Source: Thermoplasmata archaeon
GTDB lineage: Archaea; Thermoplasmatota; Thermoplasmata; Lutacidiplasmatales; UBA184
Assembly: GCA_022750125.1 (NCBI GenBank)
Contig: JAKIWH010000001.1
Coordinates: 1 to 57,176, forward strand
Direction of reading: 5' to 3'
Length of the DNA: 57,176 bases
Shown: positions 31,151 to 50,781 of the stretch, one piece after another
Layout: each line of letters begins with the position of its first letter
Position numbering within the stretch: the stretch's first letter is position 1
The notes under the pieces: generated by a model
Seen by the model: the letters and a program-made list of their open reading frames with translations, nothing else
Databases searched by the model: none
Told to the model about the DNA's origin: nothing
Program-made: the position numbers and the translations under genes

Positions 31151-32692
31151 TTACTGGCCGGGTCCCGTGCCCGGACTCGTCGGGGGCGGGGGGGTCGGGT
31201 ACCCTGGCGCGGGGGGGTAGCCGCCCGGTCCCGGGGGCATCTGCCCAGGGTAGACGCCAGGGGGCGCTCCGCCCTGCGGCCCCCCGTAGGCGGCCGGCGG
31301 GGCACGGCGGCGGCGCCGCATCACGACGAGCGCCGCGAGGAGCCCAGCGAGCACGACGACGACGGCCACCACGACGAGGACGGTGGGGAACGAGGAGCTG
31401 CTCGAGCCCCCGCCCTGGGAGGTGGTGATCGCCTTGTACTGGCTCTCCGCCACGCTGACGGGCTCTGGGCCCGCCTTGACCGAGAGCGAGTGGGGCGCGG
31501 ACCCGTTCGATCCCGGTAGGGAGAGGGAAGAGGTGCCGGAGGCGCTCGTCCCGATGATGCCCCCGTGCTGCTGGTAGTAGGCGGACTCTCCCGTCGTCAG
31601 TCCGGAGAGACCCGCGTTCGGCTGCGCGCCCGCGGCGGGGCTCACGGAGCCCGAGAGGATGCCCAGGTAGCCGCCGAGGCCCGAGTAGAGGACCGCGGGC
31701 ACCATGACCCAGCCGTCCGAGGCCGCGAAACCGCCCGCGCCGAAGTCGAGCAGGATGATCTGCGCGGTGGTCGACGTCGCGGGGTTCGTGTAGTTGTCCC
31801 AGAGGGTGTAGGAGCCGAGGTCGGTCCCGTTCACCGAGAGGTTCCCGGAGGGGGCGACGTGCCCGCTCAACCACTGGCCGGAGGCGGCCGAGTGGCCGCC
31901 GATGTTCTCGGTGAGGCTGTATCCGCTGTGGTAGCCGCCCGTCGCGGAGTAGGGGGCGAAAGCGGTCCAGGTGTCCCCGGGGGAGGGGTTCAGGGGGACG
32001 AGCCCGAGCGGGCTCGGGAAGTTCACGGTGGAGCTCTCGTTCCCGCCGAAGACGAAGCTCGCGGTCCCGCCGGTCGAGGTCGAGTTGATCGCGATGCCCT
32101 GCACGTTCAGGTTGCCGCTAAAGTTGAACGACTCGCTCGAGGCCGCGTTCATGATCGCAGTCGCGGCCACGTTGCTGCCGGTGAAGCTCCCCGAGGGGGT
32201 GAGGTTCACAGTGCCGGCCGTCAAGTTGGTGAAGCCGACCGCCGTCTCGAGGCCCTGGATGTTGAGGCTCTCCGAGACCTGGTGGCAGCTGCCCGTCCCG
32301 TTGGTGTTGAGGCAACCGGAGACGGAGAAGGCCGCCGAGACATTGAGCGCCGCCTGGCCCTCGACCTGGGTCTGCGTCGAGGAGACGTTCGTCTGAGTGT
32401 AGATGACCACCCAGCCGATGTAGTAGTGGAAGCTCAGCGTGATCGTCTGGCCGCCCGTGAGGTTCGCGCCGAAGCAGCCGTTGTTCATGCAGGAGTAGGC
32501 TGCGGAGGCGTTCCCCCCGAACGCCCACTGCTGGGTGGCGCCGGTGGCGGTGTGCACCGGGGCGATCATGGGCGAAATCGCGACGGGGGAGCCGAACGCG
32601 GCGCCCGAAAGCGCCATCGTGAGGGTCATGCAGAGCGCAAGACCCAGGCTCGTTCCCTTGACTAGGCGGCTTAGCTTCGACAACGTTGTCAC
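31151..32692 (-). CDS. Secreted Ser/Thr/Gly/Asn-rich surface glycoprotein with a C-terminal TM helix and a Pro/Gly-rich cytoplasmic tail
   Basis: GTG at 32692 gives a signal-like N-terminus (TTLSKLSRLVKGTSLGLALCMTLTMALSGAAFG). Dense N-x-S/T sequons. TM helix VLVVVAVVVVLAGLLAALVV followed by RRRRR and PPGxYP repeats. The upstream part of the 619-aa track ORF is not credible. Confidence 0.7.
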   Translation of the reverse strand: MTTLSKLSRLVKGTSLGLALCMTLTMALSGAAFGSPVAISPMIAPVHTATGATQQWAFGGNASAAYSCMNNGCFGANLTGGQTITLSFHYYIGWVVIYTQTNVSSTQTQVEGQAALNVSAAFSVSGCLNTNGTGSCHQVSESLNIQGLETAVGFTNLTAGTVNLTPSGSFTGSNVAATAIMNAASSESFNFSGNLNVQGIAINSTSTGGTASFVFGGNESSTVNFPSPLGLVPLNPSPGDTWTAFAPYSATGGYHSGYSLTENIGGHSAASGQWLSGHVAPSGNLSVNGTDLGSYTLWDNYTNPATSTTAQIILLDFGAGGFAASDGWVMVPAVLYSGLGGYLGILSGSVSPAAGAQPNAGLSGLTTGESAYYQQHGGIIGTSASGTSSLSLPGSNGSAPHSLSVKAGPEPVSVAESQYKAITTSQGGGSSSSSFPTVLVVVAVVVVLAGLLAALVVMRRRRRAPPAAYGGPQGGAPPGVYPGQMPPGPGGYPPAPGYPTPPPPTSPGTGPGQ

Positions 32693-32909
32693 GGCTGTAT
32701 CTCCGAAAATGGCAGACCGGGGAGGGGGGAAATAGCTTCCGGTACGGGGGAGCGACTCCCGGGCGACCCCCAGGGGGGCGAACGGTCCCACGCTCGCCAC
32801 CGCCTCGCGAACTCCACCGTGGGCTCCTCCGCCGCGGTCCGCGGCTGGGGAACCGCGGCCCCACCTGAAATATTGTGCCGTGCTAGGCCTGGAATCGGCC
32901 CGGTCTGAG

Positions 32910-33356
32910 ATGGCGAGTCGGGCACGTTCTGATCGAGCGTCGGCGCAACCTACGCCGAAGGTGGGGAAGCTCGACGAAGTGCACCTACCTGTCCTAAATC
33001 TGGCACGCATGCGAGATTACTACGAAGCAGAGCTTGGGTTCGGGGTGGCGTTCTCACACGAGGACCGGATAGTCGCGTTCGATACGGGCGGCGCGATGCT
33101 TGTGCTCGACGCCACCAAGCCCAGGACGGGCCCCGTGTACCTCGGATTCCAGGTGACGGGGACCGCCGAGCTGATCGCACGCCTTGCGGCCAGAGGGACC
33201 CCTGTGGTGGTGCCGACCTCGAAGCAGCATTGGGGAGAGCTCCTCACCATCGTCGAGGATCCCGAAGGAAACAGGCTTGCGTTCGAAGAGGGGACCGGAT
33301 CGAAGGGGCACCATCATCGGCCCCAACGTGCCCGGGTCCGGGCTGAGGGAAAGTAG
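32910..33356 (+). CDS. VOC (glyoxalase) family protein
   Basis: LPVLNLARMRDYYEAELGF...HWGELLTIVEDPEGNRLAF. The AT-rich TGAAATATTG at 32866..32875 favours the ATG at 32910. GTG at 32961 is also possible. Confidence 0.75.
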   Translation: MASRARSDRASAQPTPKVGKLDEVHLPVLNLARMRDYYEAELGFGVAFSHEDRIVAFDTGGAMLVLDATKPRTGPVYLGFQVTGTAELIARLAARGTPVVVPTSKQHWGELLTIVEDPEGNRLAFEEGTGSKGHHHRPQRARVRAEGK

Positions 33357-33564
33357 AACCTGGCCCGGGCGCATCCTAGCTCCTCCGGCCCGCCTCGGAG
33401 CTCGCCCGGGCCCCACGAGGCCGCCGCTTTCTCGCGACGGCGAATAGGCCGCCGTCGTAGGTACGACCATGTTCGCTGTGCCGCTCGACCGCCGGCACGA
33501 GGGGTCTTGGCCCTGCCCTTTGCCACCCTTCATAGCGAAGCTAACCTACCACGCCCGAGCCCAG

Positions 33565-35073
33565 ATGGGTCGGGACCAAATGGCGCTACGAAAGCTAGGG
33601 GATTCCTCGAGTCCTGCGCGGTACCTGCCGCTGCCGATTCTCGACCCGACTACGGGTGCCACTAGGACTCGCTATTCCCAGCCGACCCCGGCGGAACTCG
33701 AGAGCAAGATCTCGCGTGCCGCCGCTGAGTTCGTTCGCTGGAGCCGGATTCCCGTCGCTAAGCGGACCGACCACCTTCGGGCCGTCGCGAAACTGTTCCG
33801 AGTCGGCGCGCCGCGCTGGGCCGAGCTCATGGCGACAGAGATGGGTAAGCCGGTCCGCGAAGGGGTCGCCGAGTCGGAAAAGTGTGCTTGGGCGTGCGAG
33901 CATTACGCCGAGCACGCGGAGGCATACCTACTGCCTGAGTCTCTCGGGGTCTCGGGCTCGGTCGCGGTCGCGGGCTACGAACCGGTAGGCGTCGTGCTCG
34001 GAGTCATGCCCTGGAACTTCCCGTTCTGGCAGGCGATCCGATTCGCGGTGCCCGCGCTCGCGGCTGGAAACGTAGTGCTTCTCAAACCCGCTTCCAACGT
34101 CGCCGGATGCGGTCTCGCCCTCGAGAAGATCTTCCGGAAGGCGGGTGCCCCCGCGGGAGCGTTTCAGACGTTGCTCCTGGAGAGCTCGCGCGTCGCGGAG
34201 GTGGTGGGAGATCCGCGGGTGCGGATGGTGAGTGTCACGGGAGGCTACCGGGCCGGGACCGAGGTGGCACGCGCCGCGGGAGCGGTCGCCAAGAAGGTGC
34301 TCCTCGAACTCGGAGGAAGCGACCCGTTTCTCGTGTTGGGCGATGCCGATGTCCGGGCCGCAGCCGTCGCGGCCGTGACGGCGCGATTCCAGAACACGGG
34401 GGAGAGTTGCATCGCCGCGAAGCGATTCATCGTGGTCAACTCCTGCCTCGCCGAGTTCCTCGAGGTCTTCGAAGCCAGGGTCCTCCGACTGCGGGTGGGG
34501 GATCCGCACGATTCTCGTACCGATGTCGGACCGCTGGCGAAGAAGGAGCTTCGCGAGGAGCTCGTGCGCCAGATCGAGGGCTCGGTCCGCGCAGGGGCGA
34601 GGATTCGGCTTGGCGGCGCGCCGCGTGAGGGCCCCGGGTTTTTCTTTCCTCCGACCGTCGTCGACCGGGTCCGGCCGGGCATGCCGCTCTTTGACGAGGA
34701 GGTGTTTGGCCCCGTCGCCTCGATCATCTCGGCCCCGAGCGACGCGGGGGCCGTTGCTCTCGCGAACGAGAGCCGGTTTGGGCTGGGGGCGAGCCTCTGG
34801 ACTCGAGACCCTCGGCGGGCCTCGGAGCTCGCCCGCGAGATCCAGGTGGGCATGGTGTTCGTGAACGGGATGGTCCGCTCCGACCCCCGAGTTCCGTTCG
34901 GCGGTGTCAAGGAGTCGGGATTCGGCAGGGAGCTCGGGCGGCACGGCCTTCGAGAACTGACGACCACGAAGCTCGTCTGGATCGAGGGAGGAAGTGCGAG
35001 AGGGGTCGACCACGGGGGGCGCCCCCAGGTCCAGGGTCGCGACCGGTCGCGATCTAGGCGGGACCCTCGTTGA
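33565..35073 (+). CDS. NAD(P)-dependent aldehyde dehydrogenase, succinate-semialdehyde-dehydrogenase-like
   Basis: MPWNFPFWQ, LELGGSDPF (catalytic Glu) and FQNTGESCIAAKRF (catalytic Cys). Start taken at the ATG at 33565. Confidence 0.9.
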   Translation: MGRDQMALRKLGDSSSPARYLPLPILDPTTGATRTRYSQPTPAELESKISRAAAEFVRWSRIPVAKRTDHLRAVAKLFRVGAPRWAELMATEMGKPVREGVAESEKCAWACEHYAEHAEAYLLPESLGVSGSVAVAGYEPVGVVLGVMPWNFPFWQAIRFAVPALAAGNVVLLKPASNVAGCGLALEKIFRKAGAPAGAFQTLLLESSRVAEVVGDPRVRMVSVTGGYRAGTEVARAAGAVAKKVLLELGGSDPFLVLGDADVRAAAVAAVTARFQNTGESCIAAKRFIVVNSCLAEFLEVFEARVLRLRVGDPHDSRTDVGPLAKKELREELVRQIEGSVRAGARIRLGGAPREGPGFFFPPTVVDRVRPGMPLFDEEVFGPVASIISAPSDAGAVALANESRFGLGASLWTRDPRRASELAREIQVGMVFVNGMVRSDPRVPFGGVKESGFGRELGRHGLRELTTTKLVWIEGGSARGVDHGGRPQVQGRDRSRSRRDPR

Positions 35074-35578
35074 GGGTTCGCGTCATCTCCACCATGTGGA
35101 CGCCCTTGCCGTTGTAGTCCCGCGTTGCCCAGACGGTCCCGACTCGAATCCGGACGCCGGAGTACTCCGCCCGGAAGCCCATCTCCTGGTGGAAGCGAAG
35201 CGAACGGGCGTTGTCGGGGTTGACGATGCAGCGGACTGTTCGGCAACCACGCGCGCGGAACCGGCGGAACAGCTCTTCGTAGAGGCGGTGGGCGATGCCG
35301 CGTCGCTGGGCAGTCGGGTCGGTGGCAACGAGGTGGATGTACCCGATTCCACGTTTCGACTGCGCAACAAACCCGAGGACGAAGCCGACGACCTTGCCGC
35401 GCTCGCGCGCGACGAGAGAGGTGGCGGAGAAGTACTTCGTGAAGAGGTGGTAGATCGAGTTCCGCTCGTGGAAAGTGGGCCAGGCCCGGTGGGCCACGCG
35501 GATGCAGTCGAGAAAATCCTCGGGAGCGGCGGAGCGGATGGTGACCCGCGCCGCCGGCGCGGCTCGCGCGCGTCGCAT
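35054..35578 (-). CDS. GNAT-family N-acetyltransferase
   Basis: VGFVLGF...IHLVATDPTAQRRGIAHRLYEELFRRFRARGCRTVRCIVNPDNARSLRFHQEMGF. Confidence 0.85.
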   Translation of the reverse strand: MRRARAAPAARVTIRSAAPEDFLDCIRVAHRAWPTFHERNSIYHLFTKYFSATSLVARERGKVVGFVLGFVAQSKRGIGYIHLVATDPTAQRRGIAHRLYEELFRRFRARGCRTVRCIVNPDNARSLRFHQEMGFRAEYSGVRIRVGTVWATRDYNGKGVHMVEMTRTLNEGPA

Positions 35579-35600
35579 CGTCCCGGAAGAGTTCGCGATT

Positions 35601-35610
35601 GTTTAAGAAG
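35601..35610 (+). promoter_or_regulatory. TATA-like box GTTTAAGAAG
   Basis: About 35 nt upstream of the ATG at 35640, in the divergent gap with the GNAT gene. Identical core to the box at 7245. Confidence 0.4.
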
Positions 35611-35639
35611 CAGGGTCTCCTCCCCTCGGCCACTCGCAC

Positions 35640-36332
35640 ATGCCAACTCCCGGGGCGGGCAAGTTCTACCACCTGGCGCTCACCCTCGTCGCGATCACCG
35701 CGCTCGCGATTGCGTTCGCGGGGTCGGTGATCGTCGGAGGGGACAACCTCCTCGTGAAGGTCGTGATCGGCGTGGCGACCGGCGCGACGAGCTCGCTCGT
35801 CATCCTGGGCCTCCAGCAGCACTTCCCGAGGGACGAGGCGCGGTTCGGGGTGATCCGCGGCCACCGGAAAATCTACGAGCAGTACGAGAAGTCAGTGCGG
35901 CAGCTCGACGACCGGCGCACCCACGCGGTCTACACGACCTCCGCCTCCGTGCAGTCGCATACGGTCGCGGAGGAGTGGGACGGATTCCTGACAGCGTTCC
36001 TGCGCGCGAACGATTCGGTCGAGTACCACCGGATCCTCGTGTTCGACCCCCAGAAGATGAGCCCCGAGTGGACGGGGCGCCTCGAGGACATCCGGAAGCG
36101 CTACGCCGGGCTCTCCAACTACTTCGAGTACCACTCTAGTGGACCTGCGACGATCGAGTTCCTTCTCGTGGACGAGGACCACGCGTTCTTCACCTTCCCC
36201 GCGACGCCTCGCAGCGGGGAGTCGAACGGAGTCATCGTCCGCGACCCCGAGACCTGCCACGAGCTCGCGGCGTACGCGCGCCACCTCACGAGCGTGCTCC
36301 CCAACGTAGCCTCCTCCGCCGCGGCCGCGTAG
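35640..36332 (+). CDS. Hypothetical protein: two N-terminal TM helices plus a cytoplasmic domain of unknown family
   Basis: FYHLALTLVAITALAIAFAGSVIV and VVIGVATGATSSLVILGL, then a soluble approximately 160-aa domain. I recognise no motif. Confidence 0.65.
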   Translation: MPTPGAGKFYHLALTLVAITALAIAFAGSVIVGGDNLLVKVVIGVATGATSSLVILGLQQHFPRDEARFGVIRGHRKIYEQYEKSVRQLDDRRTHAVYTTSASVQSHTVAEEWDGFLTAFLRANDSVEYHRILVFDPQKMSPEWTGRLEDIRKRYAGLSNYFEYHSSGPATIEFLLVDEDHAFFTFPATPRSGESNGVIVRDPETCHELAAYARHLTSVLPNVASSAAAA

Positions 36333-36447
36333 GCGCGGACCGCGGCGACCGTCCCCGAACTCCTTCCGACCCAACCGGCCTGACGGATTCAGGAGGGGGG
36401 CGAAACGCCCGTTCCCTCACCGACCGTTTCCTACCCTCCGTTTCCGA

Positions 36448-36455
36448 CCTTAAGC
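36448..36455 (+). promoter_or_regulatory. TATA-like box CCTTAAGC
   Basis: About 33 nt upstream of the ATG at 36484. Would give a leaderless or short-leader transcript for the three-gene polB operon. Confidence 0.4.
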
Positions 36456-36483
36456 GGTCACGACCCCGTCTTCTCCCGGTACC

Positions 36484-37323
36484 ATGTTCGAGGTCGAGAG
36501 TCCCGCGTACGAGCTTCCGTCGATACGGCCGGGCTCCTCGGCGATCCTCCTGCCCCGCCCGCTCCTTCGGCCCGCCTCGGAGCTCGCCCGGGCCCCGCGC
36601 GGTCGCCTCTTCCCGCTCGCGCCGCACCTCTACAGCTGGCTCGAGCGCCGGTTCGCCCCGGGGGAGGCGACGTACCTCTCGGGACCCGCCGGGGCGGTCC
36701 ACGGCTTCGTCTCCTTCCTGCTCGCCGCCGTCGCGGCGGCGGAGCGCACCGTCTCCCTCCGGGACGGGGCGAACCGGTTCTCGCCGTACGCCATCGCCGC
36801 GCTCGGGCGGCGCTGGGACGTTCCTGTGGAGGACCTCCTCCTGCGCATCCGGCTAGCCCGCGCCTTCACGGCGCACCAGATGGTGACGCTCGCCGAGACC
36901 TGGCGGGACGACGAGGTCGGGGAGACGGCGCCCGCCGACCTCCTCGTGGCGGGGGACCCCGCGCTCCTCTTCGCCGAAGAGGAGGTCGAGCCGTACGAGC
37001 GGGCGGCGCTCCTGCCGTACGTCGCACGCTGTCTCAAGGATCTCCTGCGGGTCACGAACCTCCCGCTCCTCCTCGTGCGGTACTCCTCCCTCGGGGATTT
37101 CGAGTGGGAAGGAGGGGGCGTCCCGTTCCACGAACTGCTCACGCTCCGGCCGAGCGAGTCGGGCGGCGTGCTGCTCGAGGCGGGCCGGGCGCGGGAGCGG
37201 CTCGAGCTCCTGGAGCTCACGCCCCACCAGCACCACCTCGAGGAGTACGAACTCGACCCCGCGGCCGCGGGGGGAGGTGTGGAGCCGTGGGACGGACCGT
37301 CCCTACCTACCGCGATGCCCTGA
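36484..37323 (+). CDS. RadB/RecA-fold protein with a degenerate P-loop (predicted pseudo-ATPase)
   Basis: It aligns by eye to RadA/RadB cores. GEATYLSGPAGAVHGFVSFLLAAV occupies the GxxGxGK[ST] position, with Lys/Thr replaced by His/Gly (nt 36679..36705). RIRLARAFTAHQMV matches the RadA 'ArAyn.dHQ' element. DLLVAGDPALLF is Walker-B-like. LLRVTNLPLLLV matches the position of RadA/RadB 'la.e.n.avv.tNQV'. Confidence 0.7.
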   Translation: MFEVESPAYELPSIRPGSSAILLPRPLLRPASELARAPRGRLFPLAPHLYSWLERRFAPGEATYLSGPAGAVHGFVSFLLAAVAAAERTVSLRDGANRFSPYAIAALGRRWDVPVEDLLLRIRLARAFTAHQMVTLAETWRDDEVGETAPADLLVAGDPALLFAEEEVEPYERAALLPYVARCLKDLLRVTNLPLLLVRYSSLGDFEWEGGGVPFHELLTLRPSESGGVLLEAGRARERLELLELTPHQHHLEEYELDPAAAGGGVEPWDGPSLPTAMP

Positions 37324-37583
37324 CCGAGCTCCTCGCCCGGTGGGAGCGGGAGTTCGGCCGAGCGCTCACGAGCCCCGCGGACCGGGCGGCGTTCCACGAG
37401 CTCGTGGTGGCCGCGCGCCGGTACGTCTCGCAGGGCACCCTCATGACGAGCGGGGACCTCATCGAGCGGGCGCTCCTCTCGGTCCTGGTGGACCTGTTCC
37501 GGCGCTCGCTCGAGCGGGAGTCCGCGCTCCCCGTCGTAGCGGAGCTGCCGCTCGAGAGCTTCGCCCCGGACGAGTCTCCGTAG
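37287..37583 (+). CDS. Small (98 aa) predicted all-helical protein, unknown family
   Basis: GTG at 37287 is preceded by GGAGG (37273..37277, 9-nt spacer). Overlaps the upstream gene by 37 nt; its stop lies 9 nt before the polB GTG. Amphipathic sequence YRDALTELLARWEREFGRAL...IERALLSVLVDLFRRSLE. Confidence 0.5.
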   Translation: MGRTVPTYRDALTELLARWEREFGRALTSPADRAAFHELVVAARRYVSQGTLMTSGDLIERALLSVLVDLFRRSLERESALPVVAELPLESFAPDESP

Positions 37584-37592
37584 GGAGGGCGC

Positions 37593-39893
37593 GTGCCCCG
37601 GGGATGGCTCCTCGACATCACCTCCTCCCGCGCCGGCGACACGCTGCTCCTCTGGATCCGGGAGCGCGGCGGACCCGTGCACCGCGTCGAGGTGCCGTTC
37701 CTCCCACCGTTCTACGTGACGGGCAAGGAGGATCGGCTCCGGGAGCTCGGCACGCTGCTCGAGCCGCGCTCCGACGTGGCAAAGCTCGGAGAAGAGCCGA
37801 CCCTCGCCTCCCTCTTCGAACCCGAGGACCCCCCGCGCCCGACGCTCGCCGTCACCCCGAACTCCCACGGACGGCGCCGGCGCCTCGCGACCGAGATCGA
37901 CAACTGGGGCGGTTGCACCGATTTCCGGCTCTACGACGTCGACGTGAGCGCGCCCCAGCAGTACTACGCGGAGCACGTGCTCTTCCCCGGGGCGCCCATC
38001 GCCTGGAGCGGCCAGCAGCTCACGGCGCTCGAGCCCGCGGAGGAGCCCGAGTACCTTCCCCCGCCGCTCAAGGTGCTCGAACTCTCGGTCGAGGTGGTAG
38101 GGGCGCGGCGGGGCCGGCCCGCGGAACCCACCGACCCTGTGGCGCGGGTGCTCCTCGGCGAGGCGGTCGCGGAGGAGGAGAGCGAGAAGGAGACGTTGCT
38201 CGCGCTCGTGGAGGAGCTCCGCCGGCAGGACCCGGATCTCCTCTGGACCCAGGGCGGGGACCAGTTCCACTTCCCGCAGCTCTACCGCCGCGCGATCGCC
38301 TCGGGGTTGAGCCCCGAACAGTTCCACCTGGGGCGGGAGCCCGCCCCGTTCGGGCTCGGCCGCGTCGGCTCCTCCTACATGAGCTACGGCCGGATCTACC
38401 ACCAGGCGCCCGCCTTCCCGCTCGCCGGCCGGTTCCACCTCGACATGAACGAACGGTTCGTCCAGGATGTCTCGCTCGCCGGGTTCCTCGACATCGCCCG
38501 GATCTCCCGGCTCGGCCTGCAGACGGTCGCGCGCCAGTCCCCCGGGACCGCCTTCTCGGCGATGGAGATCGCCCGGGTGCTCGCGGACGGCTTCCACGTC
38601 CCGTGGAAGAAGAACCTCCCCGAGCGGCCGAAGAGCGCGCGCCGGCTCGTCGCGGCGGACCGCGGGGGGCTCATCCTCACTCCCCCGGTCGGCCTCTTCG
38701 AGGAGGTGGACGAGTTCGACTTCGTCTCCCTCTACCCGTCGATCATGGTCGAGCACAACCTCTCGGTCGAGACGCTCGATTGCCCGTGCTGCCCCGAGAG
38801 CCCCCACGTCGCCCCGGGGCTCGGCTACCGCTCCTGCACGCTCCGGGACGGGCTCGTGCCCCGGACGCTCCGGCCGATCCTCTCCCGGCGCCGGTACTTC
38901 AAGCGGCGCAAGAAGGAGACGACGGGGACGGAGAAGGAGCGGTACACGGAGCTCGGCAAGGCCTGGAAGTGGGTGCTCGTCACGAGCTTCGGCTACCAGG
39001 GGTACCGCAACGCGAAGTTCGGCCGGATCGAGTGCCACGAGGCGATCAACGCCTACGCGCGGGAGCTCCTCGTGGAGCTCATCGCGACGGCGCGGAGCGC
39101 CGGCTGGGAGGTGGTGCACGGGATCGTCGACTCGCTCTGGATGCTCCCGCCCCCGGGGGGAGACCCCGAGGCGTTCTGCGCCGAGGTCTCGGAGCGGACC
39201 CACCTCCCGCTCGGCTACGAGGGGCGGTACCGCTGGATCGTGTTCCTGCCGGACGCCGAGTACGGTCTCGGCGTACCGCAGCGGTACTACGGGCGGTTCC
39301 ACGACGGGGAGTTCAAGCTCCGGGGGATCGAGGTGCGGCGCGGGGACACGTGCGACTTCGTGCGGGTCACGCAGGAACAGGTGCTCGAGCTGCTCGGCAA
39401 GGCCGCGAACGGCAACGAGTTCCGGGCGGCGATCCCCCGGGCGCTCGCGCTCGGGAAGGTACGGGTGGACCGCCTCGCGGAGGGGAACTGGCCCCGGGAG
39501 GAGCTGCTCCTCACGCAGCGGATCGCGCAGTCGCTCGAGGAGTACCGACTCCTCTCGCCCACGGTCGCCGCGCTCCGGCAGCTCAAGGAGGTCGGGATCC
39601 TGCGCAAGCCCGGACAGGAGGTGAGCTTCCTCCTGATGGAGCGCTCCTCCCGGGACTGGCGACGGAAGGCGCGGCCCGAGCAGCTCGTCACGGGGCAGGA
39701 GGATTACGATGTCCAGGCGTACGCGGAGCTGCTCGCGAGGAGCTTCGCGACGTTGTTCGCCCCATTCGGTCTCACCGAGGGGCGGGTGCTGCGGGGCTGG
39801 GGGTACCCGTACCGCGCCGCGCCCACGCCGACCGTGCGGGACCACAAGTCGCTCGAGTTCCGTGGGCAACGGAGCCTCGGGAGCGTAGTGTAG
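37593..39893 (+). CDS. polB: Family B DNA polymerase, divergent: exonuclease motifs I/II and polymerase motif C eroded (PolB2-like?)
   Basis: Motif A DFDFVSLYPSIM is intact (38718..38747). Motif B reads KWVLVTSFGYQGY. Motif C reads VVHGIVDSLW instead of Y.DTDS (39111..39143). KxY region reads QRYYG. ExoI reads LELSVEV instead of a DxE-type FDIET (38076..38096). ExoII reads GGDQFHFPQLY instead of N..FD..Y (38253..38285). GGGAGGG lies 5 nt upstream of the GTG start. Confidence 0.9.
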   Translation: MPRGWLLDITSSRAGDTLLLWIRERGGPVHRVEVPFLPPFYVTGKEDRLRELGTLLEPRSDVAKLGEEPTLASLFEPEDPPRPTLAVTPNSHGRRRRLATEIDNWGGCTDFRLYDVDVSAPQQYYAEHVLFPGAPIAWSGQQLTALEPAEEPEYLPPPLKVLELSVEVVGARRGRPAEPTDPVARVLLGEAVAEEESEKETLLALVEELRRQDPDLLWTQGGDQFHFPQLYRRAIASGLSPEQFHLGREPAPFGLGRVGSSYMSYGRIYHQAPAFPLAGRFHLDMNERFVQDVSLAGFLDIARISRLGLQTVARQSPGTAFSAMEIARVLADGFHVPWKKNLPERPKSARRLVAADRGGLILTPPVGLFEEVDEFDFVSLYPSIMVEHNLSVETLDCPCCPESPHVAPGLGYRSCTLRDGLVPRTLRPILSRRRYFKRRKKETTGTEKERYTELGKAWKWVLVTSFGYQGYRNAKFGRIECHEAINAYARELLVELIATARSAGWEVVHGIVDSLWMLPPPGGDPEAFCAEVSERTHLPLGYEGRYRWIVFLPDAEYGLGVPQRYYGRFHDGEFKLRGIEVRRGDTCDFVRVTQEQVLELLGKAANGNEFRAAIPRALALGKVRVDRLAEGNWPREELLLTQRIAQSLEEYRLLSPTVAALRQLKEVGILRKPGQEVSFLLMERSSRDWRRKARPEQLVTGQEDYDVQAYAELLARSFATLFAPFGLTEGRVLRGWGYPYRAAPTPTVRDHKSLEFRGQRSLGSVV

Positions 39894-40051
39894 GCGGGAA
39901 GCCGGAGAACGGAGAGAGGAGAGGGAGCAGCCGCAGAGGGCCGCTCCAGGGCAGGACCCCCCGACGCTCGGTCACGAGGGAGGGGTCCGCGATAACGGCT
40001 CCGAGGTGTGAAGTAGCGAGGAGGACTGTCAACCGAGGCGGGGTAGGGAGG

Positions 40052-42826
40052 ATGGAATCACGCCGCCCCCTGGGATCCATCTCGTTTCTCCTAGTCGCAC
40101 TTCTCCTCATACCGCCCTCGCTGGGAGCGGGGGGAAGCGGTCCGACAGCCCACGCCCCCCAGGCGTCGAGTGCGACGGGGAACTCGGCCGGGGCACATGC
40201 GTGGAGCCCGGACTCCGGCCTCTCTTCGCCGGGGGCTCCCCGGGACCATCTGGTCACAACCCAGCTCAGCCCGCTTCCCGGGGCCAACGCCGGCTTCGGC
40301 ACCCCTGCTTGGCTCGCCTTCGACGCGGCGGACTCGGCGTTCTGGGTGGCCGTCCCCCCCTCGAGCCTCGACGAGATTCCGGCGAACGACACGACCCGCG
40401 TAGCGGCCTCGGTGACCGTCGGGGGCGACCCGTTCGGCGTGGCGGTGGACAGCGCGACGGGAAACGTGTTCGTCACCAATGCCGGCTCGAACACGGTGAG
40501 CGAGGTTTCCCCTGTCAGTGCCACGGTCATCGGATCGCTCTGGACGGGGGACGAACCGAAAGGGATTGCCTACGACAGCCAGGACAGCGAGCTGTACGTG
40601 GCGAACTTCTACGCCGACTTCGTCTCGGTCTACTCGGCGGGAGGGACGAGCGTCGACCTGGTTGCTACGATTCCTGTCGGGCACAACCCGCTCGGGGTGG
40701 CTTACGACCCCGCCTCGGGGAAGGTGTTCGTCGCGAACTCGGGCTCGATGTCCGTCTCGGTCATCAGTCCCACACGGAACGTGGTCGTCGCGACGCTCCC
40801 GGCCGGCGCAGGTCCCTACGGGGTAGCGATCGACAACGCGACGGACAACGTCTACGTCACGAACGAGGGCTCGTACAATATCTCGGTCTTCAGCGCCTCG
40901 AGCTATGCGACCGTGGCCTCCATCCCCGTGGTAACCGGCAACATCGACCTGCAGGGGCTCGCCTACGACAGCCGCACCGGTCAGATGTGGGTGGGCGCTG
41001 GAGGGGAGTACCTCGTCCTGGTGAACACCAGCACGGAGAGCGTGGCGACGTACCTGACGGTCGATCCCTCCGGGGTCGCCTACGACCCGTCCACGGGCCT
41101 CATGTGTGTCACGAACACGTACAATACGACGTTCGAGTGCGCGACGGTCCTTCCGTACGGATCGAACTCGGCCAACGTCACCTTCACCGAAACGGGGCTG
41201 CCCCCCGGGACGACCTGGGAGGTCGCGGTCGAAAATAGCGCGGTCCAAACCTCGAACACGAGCCAACTCGAGATCGCCCCCTGTCCCCAGGGCCCCTGCG
41301 TTTCGGACTACTACTTCCTGATCCAGCCCGCCGGCGGCCTCGTTCCTACGCCCGCGACGGTATGGGTGAACTTCACCTATCCGTTCAAGCCGCCCCCGAT
41401 CAGCATCGGCATCGCCGCCGGCGCGCGGCTGTTCAACGTGACCCTCCAAGAACGGGGACTCGTGCCCGGGACCGGGTGGATGGTGGACCTCGACGGTGTC
41501 CTCTTGGCCTCCACAGGCGGCACGTTGACGGTAGAGCGGACGAACGGCTCGTATCCCGTCGACTTCACCTGCCCCAACTACATCGTCCTCTCGCATTCCT
41601 CGGGCGTTTATGTGCACGGAGCCGATGCGAACGGCTCCGTCAACTTCTCCCTCGCGAAATGGGGTGCGAGCTTCTCCGAGACGGGCCTTCCGTCGGGCTA
41701 CGCCTGGTACGTCAACTTCACGACGGGACCGGTCGGCTTCGCGCTACCTTCCTCGGGACCAGTAACCTACGCGTACGCGAACATGGTCGCACCGAACGGG
41801 ACGTACAACCTCACCGTACAGGATGCGGGCAATCTCTACCAGACCACGGAGAATCGGACCGTCGAGATCGACAGCGGCCGCGTTCTCCCCGTGGCGGCCA
41901 CCCAGGTCGTGTTCACGACCGTGAGCTTCTCGGTGGAGTTCCAGGCGCGGGGGCTGCCGGCGAACGCGGTCTGGAGCGTCGCGCTCGACGGCACGAAGAT
42001 CTCCTCCACCTCTCCGAACATCACCTTCACGGAGCCGGTCGGGAACTACTCCTACGTCGTCACGACCGTAGCGGGGCTCGCGGCAGCTCCCGCCTCGGGC
42101 TGGGTAAACTTCACGATCGGTCCTCCTCCCGCTGTTCCGATCCTGTTCAGCTCCACCGAACGGTTCGCGGTCGTGTTCCACGAGACCGGACTTCCCTCCG
42201 GTACCGGTTGGGCCATCGCCATCGGGAGCTCCTTCGAGAGCTCGGCGACGAGCAACGTCAGCTTCGAGGAGCTGAACGGGAGCTACTCCTACCTCGTCTT
42301 CGATGTTCCCGGGTACACCACGACCTACTCAGGTCAGTTCCAGGTCAGCGGCTCCGCAGTGCGCGTTGTCGTCCCGTTTCTTCCGCAGACCTACCCGGTG
42401 ATCGTCGTCGAGTTCGGCCTGCCGAACGGCACCCAGTGGAGCATCACGGTCACCAACGCATCCTCCGGGTACAACCGGACGTACTCCACGAACGGTTCGG
42501 CGATCCTGTTCTACCTCCCGAACGGCACCTTCGATCTTTCCGTGGGCTTGCCCAACGGATACACCGCGGTCGTCTCGCCCTCGACGTTCACCGTCGCGGG
42601 CCGCGTCACCACCGTGCCGACCGTGCATGCCAGCCGGACCTTCGCGCCGACGGGACCGACCCCCGGAACCCGCCCGGCGGGTGCTTGGCCGCTCTGGTTG
42701 GAACTGGTGGTCTTCGGTGGCATCGCGTTGCTCGTGGTGGCCGCCGCCTTCGCGGGGAGAAAACGACGGCCACCGACGGGCACGACCACCCCACCCCGAA
42801 CGGAAGGTTCCGCTCGACTCGGCTAG
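40052..42826 (+). CDS. Surface protein: signal peptide, YVTN-type beta-propeller, six tandem 'GLPxGTxW' Ig-like modules, C-terminal TM anchor
   Basis: ATG at 40052 (MESRRPLGSISFLLVALLLIPPSLG). YVTN repeats (NVFVTNAGSNTVSEV, ELYVANFYADFVSVY, KVFVANSGSMSVSVI, NVYVTNEGSYNISVF). Six modules are headed by FTETGLPPGTTW, LQERGLVPGTGW, FSETGLPSGYAW, FQARGLPANAVW, FHETGLPSGTGW and VVEFGLPNGTQW. TM helix LWLELVVFGGIALLVVAAAFAG followed by RKRR. The upstream 925 codons of the 1849-aa track ORF are an artefact. Confidence 0.87.
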   Translation: MESRRPLGSISFLLVALLLIPPSLGAGGSGPTAHAPQASSATGNSAGAHAWSPDSGLSSPGAPRDHLVTTQLSPLPGANAGFGTPAWLAFDAADSAFWVAVPPSSLDEIPANDTTRVAASVTVGGDPFGVAVDSATGNVFVTNAGSNTVSEVSPVSATVIGSLWTGDEPKGIAYDSQDSELYVANFYADFVSVYSAGGTSVDLVATIPVGHNPLGVAYDPASGKVFVANSGSMSVSVISPTRNVVVATLPAGAGPYGVAIDNATDNVYVTNEGSYNISVFSASSYATVASIPVVTGNIDLQGLAYDSRTGQMWVGAGGEYLVLVNTSTESVATYLTVDPSGVAYDPSTGLMCVTNTYNTTFECATVLPYGSNSANVTFTETGLPPGTTWEVAVENSAVQTSNTSQLEIAPCPQGPCVSDYYFLIQPAGGLVPTPATVWVNFTYPFKPPPISIGIAAGARLFNVTLQERGLVPGTGWMVDLDGVLLASTGGTLTVERTNGSYPVDFTCPNYIVLSHSSGVYVHGADANGSVNFSLAKWGASFSETGLPSGYAWYVNFTTGPVGFALPSSGPVTYAYANMVAPNGTYNLTVQDAGNLYQTTENRTVEIDSGRVLPVAATQVVFTTVSFSVEFQARGLPANAVWSVALDGTKISSTSPNITFTEPVGNYSYVVTTVAGLAAAPASGWVNFTIGPPPAVPILFSSTERFAVVFHETGLPSGTGWAIAIGSSFESSATSNVSFEELNGSYSYLVFDVPGYTTTYSGQFQVSGSAVRVVVPFLPQTYPVIVVEFGLPNGTQWSITVTNASSGYNRTYSTNGSAILFYLPNGTFDLSVGLPNGYTAVVSPSTFTVAGRVTTVPTVHASRTFAPTGPTPGTRPAGAWPLWLELVVFGGIALLVVAAAFAGRKRRPPTGTTTPPRTEGSARLG

Positions 42827-42951
42827 CGCGACTTCCCTCGGGGCCCAAGTTCTGCTCGTCCACCCCGGGCGGACTTCGGAGACTAGGGCGGAGGTCGGGA
42901 CCGCAGGGGGCGCCTCGAGGAATTTGGTGCGGTAGCGCGCGTCCCCCGGCT

Positions 42952-43060
42952 CTCACCGAGGAGCGGACCCTGCGGGAATGGGGGTATCCGTTCCGGGCGG
43001 CCGGTATCCCCGCCGGCGGGAATCGGAGGTCGCTCGAGAGAGGCGGTCAGCGAACTCTGC
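42952..43060 (+). pseudogene. Orphan remnant homologous to the last ~40 codons of polB
   Basis: 42952.. translates LTEERTLREWGYPFRAAGIPAGGNRRSLERGGQRTL; the polB C-terminus (39771..) reads LTEGRVLRGWGYPYRAAPTPTVRDHKSLEFRGQRSL. Ungapped nucleotide alignment matches at 71 of 110 positions by hand count. There is no upstream polB-like sequence or start codon. Confidence 0.5.
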
Positions 43061-43189
43061 CCCCCGCGGCGAACCTCGGGCCGAGCGGGCCGACCCCGAG
43101 CGAGCCCAAGTCTGGGAAGGGAGCGTCTAGACGGACGCTCCCCCGGCCGGACGCGGGTAACCCCGGACCCGGCGCCTGCGGTTGGGCTC

Positions 43190-44587
43190 CTAGGTCTTCC
43201 CTGCCTTGCGGTTTCGCATGAGGAGCACGGCCGCGAGGGCGCCCAGGGCGAGGAGGACCGCGAGCCCGATGGCGATCCACTCCCAGGTGGGCATTCCGCT
43301 CGACGAGGTGCCGGGCGAGTTGGACCCGCCGCCACCGCCGCCGCTGCCGGCCGTGGTGAACACGATCGGTTGGGCCACGGAGTTGCCGGTTACCGTGAGG
43401 GTCCCGGAGGAGGGGGTCGCGTCGTAGCCGGACTGGGCGGCGATGGTGTAGGTGATCGTCCCGTTCGCCTCCGAGAAGGCGTTGGTGTCGGTCAGCGAGT
43501 TGATCAGCACCCCGTTCAACGTGACCGACCAGCCGGTTCCGGCGGTGAGTCCCGACTCGGTGAACGTCACGGTGCTGAAGCTGCCCGAGGCGCCGGCCGT
43601 GAACTGGATGGTCGCGGCGGCTGGGGCGCCGTTCACCGGCACGCTCCCCGAGGCGGGGCTCGCGGTGTAGGCGGCGACGGTGCCGGCGGTGTACGCGTAA
43701 CTTCCGCTCGGGACGTTGAATTGATTGGTGGTGCCCATCGAGCTACTCAGAACCCCGGCGAAGGTGACCGACCAGCTCGTCTGGGCCGGAAGGCCGCTCT
43801 CGGTGAAGGTGACCGGATAGGTGGTCGGCGCGGTCGTGGTGGGCACGACGATGGTGGCGCTCGCGAGGGTCACATCCCCGGTGGCGGCCAGCGCCCGGCC
43901 GTTCAGCTGGGCACCGGTGCTCAGGGTGATCGAGGTGTGCGCGAGGAGGGTGCCCTGCATGACCGAGGTGGTCCCGAGCGACGCGGAGCTTCCCATCTGC
44001 CAGAAGACGTTGCCTGCCTGCGCGCCGTTCGTCAGGACGACCTGGCGGCCGGAGGTGGTGGTGAGGGCGGACGCGACCTCGAAGACGAAGACCGCGTTCG
44101 GGTTTCCGCCGCCGCTCAGGGTGAGGTCCCCGGAGGAGATCGCGAGAGACGAGGTGGACTTGTACAGGCCCGGGGTCAGGGTCTGGCCCCCGAGGTTGCC
44201 GGCGACGCTGACCGCGCAATTGGAGCGACCCGCAGCGTCGTTGAATGCCGTCGTGAGGTCGAGCTTGGCGGCGGCCGAGGCCGTGTTGGCTACGTTCTCG
44301 ACGCCCGTGTGGGTTCCGGGCGGGAATCCTGTCACCGCGGAACCGGGGCTCACCCCGATGTCGCCCGTGAGGGAGCTCGGACCGGTGTTGGTGATCGAGG
44401 TGGCGGAGAGGGCCGCGTACGAGGATGTCGAGCCCAGCGCGACGGCGCCCTGTCCGCACGTCGCGGCGGGGACGACGCTCGTGCCCGTCGCCCGCGGAAT
44501 CACCGCCACAAACGCAGCGAACACCATGGCGAATCCGACCAGTACGCTCAAAGCTCGAACGCTTCCTCGCTTGCTCTCCATCGACAT
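43190..44587 (-). CDS. Surface protein: DUF3494 (ice-binding-like beta-solenoid) domain, two 'GLPxxTxW' modules, Gly-rich linker and C-terminal TM anchor
   Basis: ATSITNTGPSSLTGDIGVSPGSAVTGFPPG...GQTLTPGLYKSTSSLAISSGDLTLSG...AVFVFEVASALTT...NVFWQMGSSASLGTTSVMQGTLLAHTSITLSTGAQLNGRALA matches the DUF3494 pattern. Then FTESGLPAQTSWSVTF and FTESGLTAGTGWSVTL. TM helix WIAIGLAVLLALGALAAVLLM. Start taken at the ATG at 44587; the track start at 44617 is a TTG. Confidence 0.82.
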   Translation of the reverse strand: MSMESKRGSVRALSVLVGFAMVFAAFVAVIPRATGTSVVPAATCGQGAVALGSTSSYAALSATSITNTGPSSLTGDIGVSPGSAVTGFPPGTHTGVENVANTASAAAKLDLTTAFNDAAGRSNCAVSVAGNLGGQTLTPGLYKSTSSLAISSGDLTLSGGGNPNAVFVFEVASALTTTSGRQVVLTNGAQAGNVFWQMGSSASLGTTSVMQGTLLAHTSITLSTGAQLNGRALAATGDVTLASATIVVPTTTAPTTYPVTFTESGLPAQTSWSVTFAGVLSSSMGTTNQFNVPSGSYAYTAGTVAAYTASPASGSVPVNGAPAAATIQFTAGASGSFSTVTFTESGLTAGTGWSVTLNGVLINSLTDTNAFSEANGTITYTIAAQSGYDATPSSGTLTVTGNSVAQPIVFTTAGSGGGGGGSNSPGTSSSGMPTWEWIAIGLAVLLALGALAAVLLMRNRKAGKT

Positions 44588-44652
44588 CTGCTTCAATCCA
44601 TGCGGTCCGTAGACCAAGGCGCCATCCGCGCCGGCCAGGGGATATACTGTTC

Positions 44653-44668
44653 CTGAACTCGAGTTCAG
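44653..44668. repeat. Perfect 16-bp palindrome CTGAACTCGAGTTCAG (candidate operator or hairpin)
   Basis: Self-complementary by inspection. Sits just upstream of a TATA-like GATATAC (44641..44647, read GTATATC on the - strand) of the DUF3494 gene, and 38 nt downstream of the stop of the REC-HTH regulator gene. Confidence 0.45.
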
Positions 44669-44705
44669 CTAGGATGGCACTGGTCCGGTCGATCTCGCGA
44701 GGGCC

Positions 44706-45755: not shown

Positions 45756-45895
45756 CGCTATGGGAGCCCCTCCCCCGCTCGGTCTTGGGGGTTACCTTGC
45801 GGCGGCGCATAGAAAGGGGCCGAATAGAGTTTTCGAACGACCTTCATCCGACGGGCTGGAGGTGGTACTAGGGTGGCTAGCCCGGCTTCGTTCGC

Positions 45896-45909
45896 CGTTC
45901 GGCCGAACG
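45896..45909. repeat. Perfect 14-bp palindrome CGTTCGGCCGAACG (candidate operator)
   Basis: Self-complementary by inspection and preceded by another CGTTCG half-site. Lies in the divergent gap between the REC-HTH regulator gene and the 46058 membrane-protein gene. Confidence 0.4.
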
Positions 45910-46057
45910 AGGGAACCGAGGATCCGCCGAGTCCAGGGAGGGACGAATCCTCATGCGGCGCTACACTCCTCAACTAGAATCGAGGGACGCCTTATCCTCC
46001 GCGAGACGGAGCGGTGCCCATCGGCCGGGGTTGATCTCCGGCGGATGGAGCAGTACG

Positions 46058-46489
46058 ATGACCGCAACAACGACAAGGACGACGAGAACCGGTTTCGCCT
46101 ATCGACACAGCAGCCCCGTAGGGGAACTCCCAATCCTGGTGGGCATTCTGGCCATCCTCATCGGGCTGGTCGGGTTGTTCTTTCTCCTCGTCGGGCTGCT
46201 CGTCACGCTCGGCGCCGTCGGGTTCGCCCTCCTTCCCGCAGCCTCAGCCTACGCCGTATTCTCCGGCACCGCGCTCCTCGCGGGAGTGATAACACTCGTC
46301 TTCGGAGCCGTCCTCGTCTTCGTCGCGACCGGCCTCTGGGACCTCGAGGTGTGGGCGCTCGCCCTTACGGGGATCGTCGTCGCGCTCCTCGTCGTCCTGC
46401 TCGTCGTGGCCGGGAGCTTCGGCTGGTCGCTCCTGATCTCGGTTGCGCTGTTGATCTACCTCGTCGCCGTCCGGGGCCACTTCTACTAA
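46058..46489 (+). CDS. Small four-helix membrane protein
   Basis: ATG at 46058 (MTATTTRTTRTG...), then four hydrophobic helices (ILVGILAILIGLVGLFFLLVGLLV and others). Confidence 0.6.
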   Translation: MTATTTRTTRTGFAYRHSSPVGELPILVGILAILIGLVGLFFLLVGLLVTLGAVGFALLPAASAYAVFSGTALLAGVITLVFGAVLVFVATGLWDLEVWALALTGIVVALLVVLLVVAGSFGWSLLISVALLIYLVAVRGHFY

Positions 46490-46788
46490 TCCGGTGAGCC
46501 GTAGCCCTTCGGAACCGGGACCGCAGCTGAGGGGTGCGGATGCCGGGAGGGATTCGGACGCGCGTTCCTCGAACTCAGCACGCCGTCTCTTCGGGCCCCG
46601 GAGCGAGGGACTGTGCCGCCATCTTCCCAAGTGCTTGTCCCTGGTGGGAGTCGACCGACACATGCCCGCCTGGAAGCGGCCGGACGCACTCGGGGGTACG
46701 GTGACTCCCGCTCGTACGGTATCGGAATCCTCCGCACCGCCAGGTTTCGGGGTCAGCTGCGGACCGGCGACGGTGGGAGTTTGCGTAG

Positions 46789-49867: not shown

Positions 49868-50677
49868 CTACCCAGAAGGGCGGGGCCACGGGGGGACGAA
49901 GGAAGGGTCCAACGCCCGCACGACCTCAAGGAACCGCTCCGCGGAGGTGGGCCCGAACCCCTCAAAGTGGTTGTTGAAGAACGCCCACGCATCCGGGAGG
50001 CCCGAGGTGCGAAGCGTCTCCGCCCACCGCTTCATCTCGCTCCCCCGGTCGACCCGGATCTCCCCGTGGAGGTCGGCCGGAACGGTCTCGTGGTCCCCGA
50101 TGAAGCGGAGGTAGGCGAAGTTACCGGTGATCGCGGGGGGCACGTCCACGAAGGTGAGGCTCGACCAGCACAGCGCGATCTTCTGTCCCCCGAGGAGGCG
50201 GCCGAGCCAGGCAAGCCCCTCTTCGGTGAACCATCCTTTCTCCCGGAGCTCCACAACGTACTGCGGGCCCGGCGGGAGCGCCTCGAGGAACTTGGTGAGG
50301 TAGAGCGCGTTCCCCCGGTCGAGCGATGGCGGGGCGCGGAACCATGGGGCGAACTGGACCACGATCGGTCCGAGCTTAGGCCCGAGGAGGCGAGCGCTCT
50401 CGACGAAGGCGAGGATCGACTCGGGGGAGAGCTCCTTCTTCGCGTCGAAGAGGTCGCGAGGCAGCTTGAGCGCGAACCGGAACCCGTCCGGCGTCTTCTT
50501 CGCCCAGCCCTTCACCACGTACGGGTTCGGTGCGGCGTAGTAGGTGGAATCGACCTCAACCGTGGCGAACTTGCCCGCGTAGAAGGCGAGCCGGTCCCCG
50601 TCGGGGATCCCTTCCGGATAGAAGCGCCCAGCCCACGCGGGCGAAGTCCAGGAGGAGCACCCAACCCTGAGCTCCAT
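49868..50677 (-). CDS. DUF72 (UPF0759) family protein
   Basis: MELRVGCSSWTSPAWAGRFYP...VEVDSTYYAAP...WAKKTPDGFRFALKLPR...AFFNNH is the characteristic DUF72 pattern. Confidence 0.9.
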   Translation of the reverse strand: MELRVGCSSWTSPAWAGRFYPEGIPDGDRLAFYAGKFATVEVDSTYYAAPNPYVVKGWAKKTPDGFRFALKLPRDLFDAKKELSPESILAFVESARLLGPKLGPIVVQFAPWFRAPPSLDRGNALYLTKFLEALPPGPQYVVELREKGWFTEEGLAWLGRLLGGQKIALCWSSLTFVDVPPAITGNFAYLRFIGDHETVPADLHGEIRVDRGSEMKRWAETLRTSGLPDAWAFFNNHFEGFGPTSAERFLEVVRALDPSFVPPWPRPSG

Positions 50678-50781
50678 CGAAGCCCAGCAGGCGGTTCGGG
50701 AGCCTTAGGCGTATCGAGCGAGCCCTCCCTGTCCCCCCACGGCGTCCTCAACCCTGAAGGGCCGCGCCGGATTCCCCTGCC

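Follow-up and report, generated by a model that had tools for sequence, protein, structure and literature searches.

Three tightly packed genes in a Thermoplasmata genome, encoding a RadA-like protein, a small helical protein and a family B DNA polymerase with eroded catalytic motifs, raise the question of whether they form a DNA lesion-bypass module and, if so, to which known system it belongs. The genes lie on contig JAKIWH010000001.1 (assembly GCA_022750125.1), of which we analysed positions 1 to 57,176 (the window, meaning throughout that whole stretch). Here, we report that the region is very probably a chromosomal PolB2 mutasome operon, encoding a non-proofreading extender complex for damage tolerance. 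The polymerase is assigned to the PolB2 group, and its partners to iRadA, an inactivated member of the RadA family, and PPB2, a three-helix protein with a conserved N-terminal arm. Structural modelling, residue-level alignment and comparison with related genomes and the published PolB2 operons place the locus within a known family, and point to a candidate regulatory element and to a possible exchange of the operon between lineages.

Gene layout and coupling

The operon comprises the following features.

36484..37323, forward strand: iRadA (gene 1), ATG start, 279 amino acids (aa)
37287..37583, forward strand: PPB2 (gene 2), GTG start, 98 aa
37593..39893, forward strand: PolB2 (gene 3), GTG start, 766 aa
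37273..37277, forward strand: GGAGG Shine–Dalgarno site for PPB2, within the iRadA 3′ end, 9 nucleotides (nt) before the start
37584..37588, forward strand: GGAGG Shine–Dalgarno site for PolB2, in the 9-nt spacer, 4 nt before the start

iRadA and PPB2 overlap by 37 nt in different frames, and 9 nt separate the PPB2 stop codon from the PolB2 start codon. The tight packing of three genes on one strand and the GGAGG sites ahead of the second and third starts, both described in a first-pass annotation made from the sequence alone, are borne out at these positions, and the three genes are translationally coupled. The coding signal is very strong, with a third-position GC of 0.91 in iRadA and 0.95 in PolB2, in a genome of 68–72% GC.

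Within the overlap, the same nucleotides (37287–37323) encode the iRadA tail W-D-G-P-S-L-P-T in one frame and the PPB2 arm M-G-R-T-V-P-T-Y in the other. Conservation of the tail WDGPSLPT may be a by-product of its overlap with the PPB2 arm. The overlap also holds a GGGGGGA run, and the PPB2 frame is open from 37104. By analogy with other lineages, in which iRadA and PPB2 are fused, a −1 frameshift here would yield an iRadA–PPB2 fusion. We considered a programmed −1 frameshift and set it aside, as the GGGGGGA run and the open frame are not distinguishable from the Shine–Dalgarno site and from the scarcity of stop codons at 70% GC.

A family B polymerase without proofreading residues

The product of gene 3 matches Pfam DNA_pol_B and is thus a family B polymerase. 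Among the NCBIfam models, NF004416 (368 bits) and NF004418 (357 bits) are matched at about 1e-110, whereas other type-B models reach at most 130 bits and 1e-38 at best. These profile scores, together with an active-site string identical to that of a catalogued PolB2 (see below), assign gene 3 to PolB2 at the level of sequence.

We aligned the window PolB2 and nine relatives with KOD polymerase using MAFFT, after verifying the KOD sequence end to end against PDB 1WNS. MAFFT misplaced the ExoI block, and the ExoI pairing is therefore a manual re-alignment by eye, guided by the LK(V/M)L...(S/D)(V/I)E block and by the distance to ExoII. The alignment gave the following correspondences.

Motif A: KOD D404 corresponds to window D376, kept (DFVSLYPS)
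Motif B: KOD K487 corresponds to window K459, kept
Motif B: KOD N491 corresponds to window V463, lost; the neighbouring T464 aligns to KOD S492
Motif B: KOD Y494 corresponds to window F466, changed
Motif C: KOD D540 corresponds to window I510, lost (HGIVDS)
Motif C: KOD D542 corresponds to window D512, kept
ExoI: KOD D141 corresponds to window S165, lost (manual re-alignment)
ExoI: KOD E143 corresponds to window E167, present but not conserved in relatives (manual re-alignment)
ExoII: KOD N210 corresponds to window G221, lost
ExoII: KOD D215 corresponds to window H226, lost

In addition, the ExoIII segment, about 50 residues around KOD Y311 and D315, is deleted. The exonuclease domain of gene 3 is decayed and, as judged from these residues, predicted to be catalytically dead. 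In the polymerase site, D376, I510, D512 and K459 are invariant in the relatives (10 relatives for motifs A and C), the first motif C position being an invariant Ile. The motif readings of the first-pass annotation largely hold: the enzyme is a family B polymerase with an intact motif A, the first acidic residue of ExoI (on the manual re-alignment) and the Asn and Asp of ExoII are missing, and motif C reads HGIVDS. For motif B, a Thr and a Phe had been read in place of the canonical Asn and Tyr; the Phe stands (F466), but the Asn column is occupied by V463 and not by the Thr. A canonical exonuclease site and a canonical motif C, which the annotation had named as speaking against its view, are not seen in the KOD alignment, and the ExoIII deletion adds a loss that it had not listed.

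Two further features of the polymerase bear on its partners. The ADRGG motif (AADRGG, with D356 and R357) is invariant in all ten sequences and is found 20 residues ahead of the motif A Asp. The C terminus carries a degenerate motif, QRSLGSVV, resembling a PCNA-interacting peptide (PIP); it keeps QxxL, and better versions occur in two of the related loci described below, L002 (QRSLAGW) and L004 (QGTLDRW).

An inactivated RadA and a small helical partner

An AlphaFold2 model of iRadA, built on a family alignment, had a predicted local distance difference test (pLDDT) score of 78.8, with the core (residues 45–245) mostly above 85. In a Foldseek search of this model against the PDB, the top matches were the ATPase cores of RadA, Rad51 and DMC1 (E 3.5e-11, probability 1.0, template modelling score up to 0.74 of the target); searching the PDB by sequence gave RadA matches that were only marginal (E 0.04). 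The P-loop, G67-P-A-G-A-V-H73-G74, lies at the RadA GxxGxGKT position with the Walker A Lys and Thr replaced (V72-H73-G74), and its columns, including those of the Lys and Thr, vary freely across 30 homologues. Residues 1–44 are poorly conserved and modelled with low confidence, and no N-terminal helical domain was modelled. The C-terminal tail is disordered; it holds a PIP-like Q249-H-H-L-E-E-Y that fits QxxLxx[FY] and lacks the second aromatic residue, and Q249 and E253 are nearly invariant in the family alignment. The iRadA family corresponds to arCOG07763/04294/08101, and a C-terminal clamp-binding motif occurs in many of its members, though not in all. The database holds 53 iRadA homologues, every taxon-labelled one of which comes from Thermoplasmata or from unclassified euryarchaeal metagenome-assembled genomes. 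The model thus identifies gene 1 as an inactivated RadA, with the predicted fold of the RadA/Rad51 ATPase core and without the ATP-binding residues or the N-terminal oligomerization domain. Both the RecA fold and the loss of the GK[ST] Lys and Thr from a P-loop reading SGPAGAVHG had been proposed from the raw letters, and both agree with the model and with the variable columns.

Gene 2 is PPB2 (arCOG07300, DUF8156), a three-helix protein with an MGRTVPTYR arm. Profile searches with the window protein gave no significant match in NCBIfam or in a Pfam set without the PF26485 model; PF26485 (DUF8156) is a precomputed match in 40 of 40 PPB2 homologues, one of them 97% identical to the window protein. 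In the arm, M-G-R-T-V-P-T-Y-R, none of 31 sequences deviates at G2 to T7, and at least 90% of them conserve M1, Y8 and R9. The AlphaFold2 model (pLDDT 82.7) contains helices at residues 8–22, 30–50 and 58–79. The published signature of PPB2 is an ‘MGRT’ motif with Arg3 and Arg9 (PMC11791011). Proteins of this family are small, at about 90 aa, and are described as trimeric coiled coils with a fold like the N-domain of sigma factors.

Conservation of the trio in related genomes

We scanned synteny in one genome per species, covering eight Thermoplasmata loci with a relative of gene 3 (L001–L008) and a ninth found through iRadA (L009). The three genes are contiguous and in the same order in seven of the eight PolB2-seeded loci (L001 and L003–L008), and every locus with the iRadA–PPB2 pair keeps both an overlap of 31–49 nt and a GGAGG-type site (reduced to GGAG in L008). 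Co-localization in related genomes, the lack of which the first-pass annotation had named as speaking against a module, is therefore observed, with an interruption in L009 and probably in L002. There, a 3.1-kb block (L009 2458–5213) consisting of an aldehyde dehydrogenase (ALDH) gene, an opposite-strand GNAT gene and a gene for a 230-aa membrane protein splits PPB2 from PolB2. L002 probably has the same block at the same place, its contig starting inside the aldehyde dehydrogenase gene (1–1457). In the window, the block, again with GNAT on the reverse strand, instead lies upstream of iRadA (33469–36332), and it is absent from L001.

L003, listed among the seven contiguous loci, carries a low-GC (61–63%) antitoxin–toxin pair between PPB2 and PolB2 (5198–5794), comprising a MazE/AbrB-type antitoxin of 69 aa and a PIN-domain toxin of 123 aa. 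The PPB2/PolB2 junction seems to be a recurrent insertion point. The split operons of these sister genomes offer a way to see whether the three subunits need to be tightly co-expressed.

A published family

This gene linkage was reportedly first described by Makarova and Koonin in 2013. Makarova et al. then analysed, in 2014, predicted operons in which genes for PolB2 and RadA-family proteins, both inactivated, stand together with that for the small helical protein arCOG07300, and proposed a repair complex (PMC4104785). Timinskas, Timinskas and Venclovas (2025) named the partners iRadA and PPB2 and the complex the ‘PolB2 mutasome’ (PMC11791011), modelling a PolB2:iRadA:PPB2(3) heteropentamer that they likened to Pol V. 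Experimental evidence comes from Sulfolobus islandicus, in which damage induces the PolB2 enzyme, Dpo2, and targeted mutagenesis relies on it alone (Feng et al.; PMC7390963, PMC8764526); Dpo2 has no exonuclease but is active as a polymerase and extends termini that are mismatched or paired with a lesion (PMC7390963, PMC8764526), and its induction by damage depends on Orc1-2 (PMC6061795).

Supplementary table 1 of the 2025 study (PMC11791011) already lists a Thermoplasmata operon, with PolB2 MCI4363004.1, iRadA MCI4363002.1 and PPB2 MCI4363003.1, that is nearly identical to ours. It is classed as group 1a, with IVD at position 509 and a DUF72 gene nearby. The 61-residue active-site string of the window PolB2 is identical to that of MCI4363004.1, and the displayed part of the N terminus differs at a single residue. 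Across the published PolB2 table, ‘HGIVDSLW’ is found 256 times, and ADRGG is also present in its haloarchaeal members (PMC11791011). The trio is therefore an ordinary chromosomal operon of the published type ‘1a (iRadA-PPB2-PolB2)’, one more Thermoplasmata example of a family catalogued in hundreds of genomes, and in this respect adds little that is new. The earlier reading of a ‘mutasome-like’ lesion-bypass module is upheld: the diagnostic features of iRadA, PPB2 and PolB2 are present, synteny extends to relatives and the whole matches the published system. The novelty that it suggested for the linkage, of which it knew no description, is contradicted by both papers (PMC4104785, PMC11791011) and by the Thermoplasmata operon in the latter's table.

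Proposed mechanism and alternative explanations

On the family literature, the three products would assemble from one PolB2, one iRadA and a trimer of PPB2. iRadA would dock on a β–α segment of PolB2 just before ADRGG, in the manner of the Rad51 oligomerization contact; in the window protein this segment would fall at about residues 335–355, where GFHVPW is followed by a helix (GFHVPW...ARRLVAA). As in the family models, one PPB2 N-terminal arm may insert between PolB2 and iRadA, beside the DNA, and expression of the complex would be expected to be induced by DNA damage. PolB2 would then serve as a non-proofreading extender of mismatched or lesion-paired primer ends, conferring damage tolerance at the cost of targeted mutations. 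A clamp contact, if there is any, would be made by the degenerate QxxL motifs, at the PolB2 C terminus or in the iRadA tail.

Several points weigh against this view. The complex, its stoichiometry, its induction and its extender activity would all be carried over from experiments in Sulfolobus and AlphaFold modelling in other species. The window copy of iRadA gave no significant match in Pfam and NCBIfam profile searches and did not reach the Pfam Rad51 model, because its sequence is too diverged; 22 of the 30 aligned family members do match Rad51 (PF08423). PPB2 had been described as a helical protein, and the three modelled helices agree; Foldseek of the model against the PDB, however, returned no significant match, listing the SigE N-domain 8b3z and other sigma-factor fragments only at E of 2 or more. 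The clamp-like QxxL motifs of PolB2 and iRadA in the window lack the aromatic pair, and the near-identical operon is listed in the published table without a clamp motif. Finally, no orc1/cdc6 or SRAP gene was found near the window operon.

A different explanation starts from the polymerase site itself. With Ile for the first Asp of motif C, substitutions of the Asn and Tyr of motif B and a destroyed exonuclease, the polymerase could be catalytically dead and the trio a non-enzymatic structural or regulatory complex acting at stalled forks or in origin or replication control. Such a view of PolB2 as inactive is an older one, said to go back to Rogozin in 2008. Makarova et al. (2014; PMC4104785) proposed it for the PolB2 family. 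Yet the Dpo2 enzymes of S. islandicus and S. solfataricus, which carry the equivalent IID, are robust polymerases in vitro, the sole responsibility of Dpo2 for targeted mutagenesis holds in vivo, and the window PolB2 keeps D376, D512 and K459, all invariant in its relatives. We consider a dead polymerase quite unlikely. It is also conceivable that gene 3 encodes the main, replicative family B polymerase beside two unrelated upstream genes, since no second DNA polymerase gene was found within the 57-kb contig; but the enzyme has no proofreading site and has lost its ExoIII segment, its profile match is far better to NF004416 and NF004418 than to replicative PolB families, its relatives keep the linkage and overlap with iRadA and PPB2, and a near-identical gene is catalogued as PolB2, all of which makes a replicative role extremely unlikely. 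Thermoplasmata genomes are generally expected to encode PolB3 and PolD.

The remaining alternative, a mobile-element module (casposon-like, or from a plasmid or virus with a protein-primed PolB) in place of a host repair system, draws on an uneven pattern of divergence. Window positions 36399–39902 are 93% identical in nucleotide sequence to L001 4808–8312, with fourfold-site identity of 0.80–0.86, whereas the flanks are about 81% identical (80–85% for individual flanking orthologues) with fourfold-site identity of 0.41–0.69; the neighbouring DNA has been rearranged, and a relic polB2 3′ end is found 3 kb downstream. Around the operon, however, searches for an integrase, Cas1, a transposase, a tRNA gene and terminal inverted repeats found none, the polymerase falls outside the casposon and pPolB types and its exonuclease is dead, and in both L001 and L003 the operon lies at the same place in the chromosome, flanked by a glyoxalase-family gene and a ROK gene. 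Homologous exchange of a chromosomal operon explains the pattern better than does an origin in a mobile element, which we regard as very unlikely. A host-encoded PolB2 mutasome operon thus accounts best for the locus.

A candidate damage-response operator

The region upstream of iRadA contains the following elements.

36402..36455, forward strand: putative promoter/operator, with three GTTTC/GAAAC pentamers and a TATA-like TTAAGC
36402–36406 (GAAAC), 36426–36430 (GTTTC) and 36440–36444 (GTTTC), forward strand: the pentamer boxes, with two CCGTTTCC repeats 14 nt apart
36450–36455, forward strand: TATA-like TTAAGC, 34–29 nt before the iRadA ATG and the only AT-rich hexamer upstream

The TTAAGC hexamer corresponds to the TATA-like box that the first-pass annotation had placed about 33 nt before the first ATG, and it is conserved as CCTTAAGCGG or CCTTATGCGG in L001, L003 and L009, as is the promoter/operator block around it. 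Three GTTTC/GAAAC pentamers occur within 120 nt upstream of iRadA at six of eight loci (the window, L001, L003, L005, L006 and L009, which fall into two groups of divergent sequence); the background frequency is 0.09 per 120 nt. In the window they fall within 45 nt and make up the only cluster of three within 60 nt across the whole 57 kb. The octamer CCGTTTCC is not enriched over the whole window, with 3 matches against 3.3 expected.

The damage element of Sulfolobales is ANTTTC, located 23–55 bp before the ATG and bound by Orc1-2 (PMC6061795). The resemblance of the GTTTC cluster to this element is a lead and not evidence. We put forward, as a possible though doubtful scenario, that the three-box operator controls the PolB2 operon and that the operon has been exchanged between lineages, with the PPB2/PolB2 junction as a recurrent insertion site. 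Were this so, an Orc1/Cdc6-type DNA-damage regulon would reach Thermoplasmatota, and insertions at the junction would uncouple the polymerase from its partners. The box cluster offers a testable candidate for a damage-response operator outside Crenarchaeota.

Possible operon exchange and genomic surroundings

The excess of operon identity over the flanks is smaller in comparisons with L002, L003 and L009 than with L001, from which part of the gap is put down to the operon's extreme codon bias at third positions. The remaining gap suggests that the operon has recently recombined or moved between lineages. Downstream, window positions 39903–48808 (8.9 kb) are absent from L001 and L002, in which the ROK gene directly follows PolB2 (after about 55 nt in L001). 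No mobility genes were found in 39903–48808. The following features lie in or beyond this segment.

40052–42826: NHL/β-propeller surface protein, in the 8.9-kb insertion
42951–43052, forward strand: relic of a polB2 3′ end, about 100 nt, ...LTEERTLREWGYPFRAAG...RRSLERGGQRTL, no start codon
43190–44617, reverse strand: ice-binding-like domain protein, in the 8.9-kb insertion
44706–45755, reverse strand: response regulator with a helix–turn–helix domain, in the 8.9-kb insertion
49868..50704, reverse strand: DUF72 gene (Pfam DUF72, 4.7e-50), of a TIM-barrel family related to UV-damage endonuclease

The segment also holds several open reading frames without family matches. The relic, which is closer to the 3′ end of the L002 gene (78% identity) than to that of the resident polB2 (70%), looks like the trace of an earlier replacement or rearrangement. 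DUF72 genes are reported to be enriched near PolB2 operons (PMC11791011). In the window, the DUF72 gene lies 10 kb from the operon because of the 8.9-kb insertion, and the L001 locus also carries a homologue; the association remains circumstantial.

Upstream, the first-pass annotation had left open whether a protein with two transmembrane segments (35640..36332) belongs to the module. In the database, this 230-aa protein matches only two entries, the window copy itself (L3K07_00170) being one. We considered it as a fourth component and rejected it: it is absent from six of eight related operons and travels with the ALDH and GNAT genes. With so few homologues, and absent or moved with the ALDH–GNAT block in relatives, it is a lineage-restricted passenger and not a member of the module.

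Large predicted surface proteins with PKD, Kelch, NHL or ice-binding-like domains are unusually frequent on the contig as a whole, being encoded at 204–2480, 7180–10410, 31151–33010, 40052–42826 and 43190–44617. The one inspected in sequence, the product of 31151–33010, contains numerous N-x-S/T sequons and is anchored in the membrane at its C terminus.

Comparison with known mutasomes and polymerases

In bacteria, imuA-imuB-dnaE2 cassettes combine a RecA-fold protein without recombinase function, an adaptor and an error-prone polymerase in a damage-inducible operon. The first-pass annotation had compared the trio with these cassettes; the logic is alike, but homology is lacking, as the window polymerase is of family B and the small protein belongs to DUF8156, whereas the bacterial polymerase is of family C, the ImuB adaptor is Y-family-like and no component is orthologous. 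In the Escherichia coli Pol V mutasome (UmuD′2C–RecA–ATP), a translesion synthesis polymerase likewise binds a RecA/Rad51-family protein through an oligomerization-like motif, and the N-terminal arm of a small subunit lies near the active site (PMC11791011). Pol V differs in that its polymerase belongs to the Y family, its RecA is active and shared with recombination and its small subunit is an unrelated dimer, so that the relation is one of analogy and not of homology. Eukaryotic Pol ζ (Rev3–Rev7(2)–Pol31–Pol32) is a multisubunit family B enzyme whose exonuclease is inactive and which takes the extender role following insertion at a lesion (PMC11791011), although with other accessory subunits and no RecA-family component.

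Closer are the Dpo2 enzymes of S. islandicus and S. solfataricus, which belong to the same PolB group, lack 3′–5′ exonuclease activity, are encoded with iRadA and PPB2 homologues and have Ile in place of the first motif C Asp, as IID where the window has IVD. They differ in being crenarchaeal, encoded at low GC, shorter and more decayed in the exonuclease domain (PMC11791011); moreover, induction by Orc1-2 through ANTTTC boxes is demonstrated in Sulfolobus (PMC6061795), whereas the window has only a look-alike GTTTC cluster. The closest match is PolB2 operon group 1a, in which the same three families occur in the same gene order. Shared with the window are the PPB2 MGRT arm with Arg3 and Arg9, an iRadA without the N-terminal domain and ATPase residues, IVD for DxD, the D(K/R) motif, the dead exonuclease and a DUF72 gene in the wider neighbourhood. 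Nothing of substance differs in the trio itself, the clamp motifs of the window being degenerate; around it, the window has the lineage-specific ALDH–GNAT–230-aa block directly upstream and neither an orc1/cdc6 nor an SRAP neighbour. The published diagnostic features (MGRT arm, ADRGG, IVD and a dead P-loop) thus identify the module from raw sequence.

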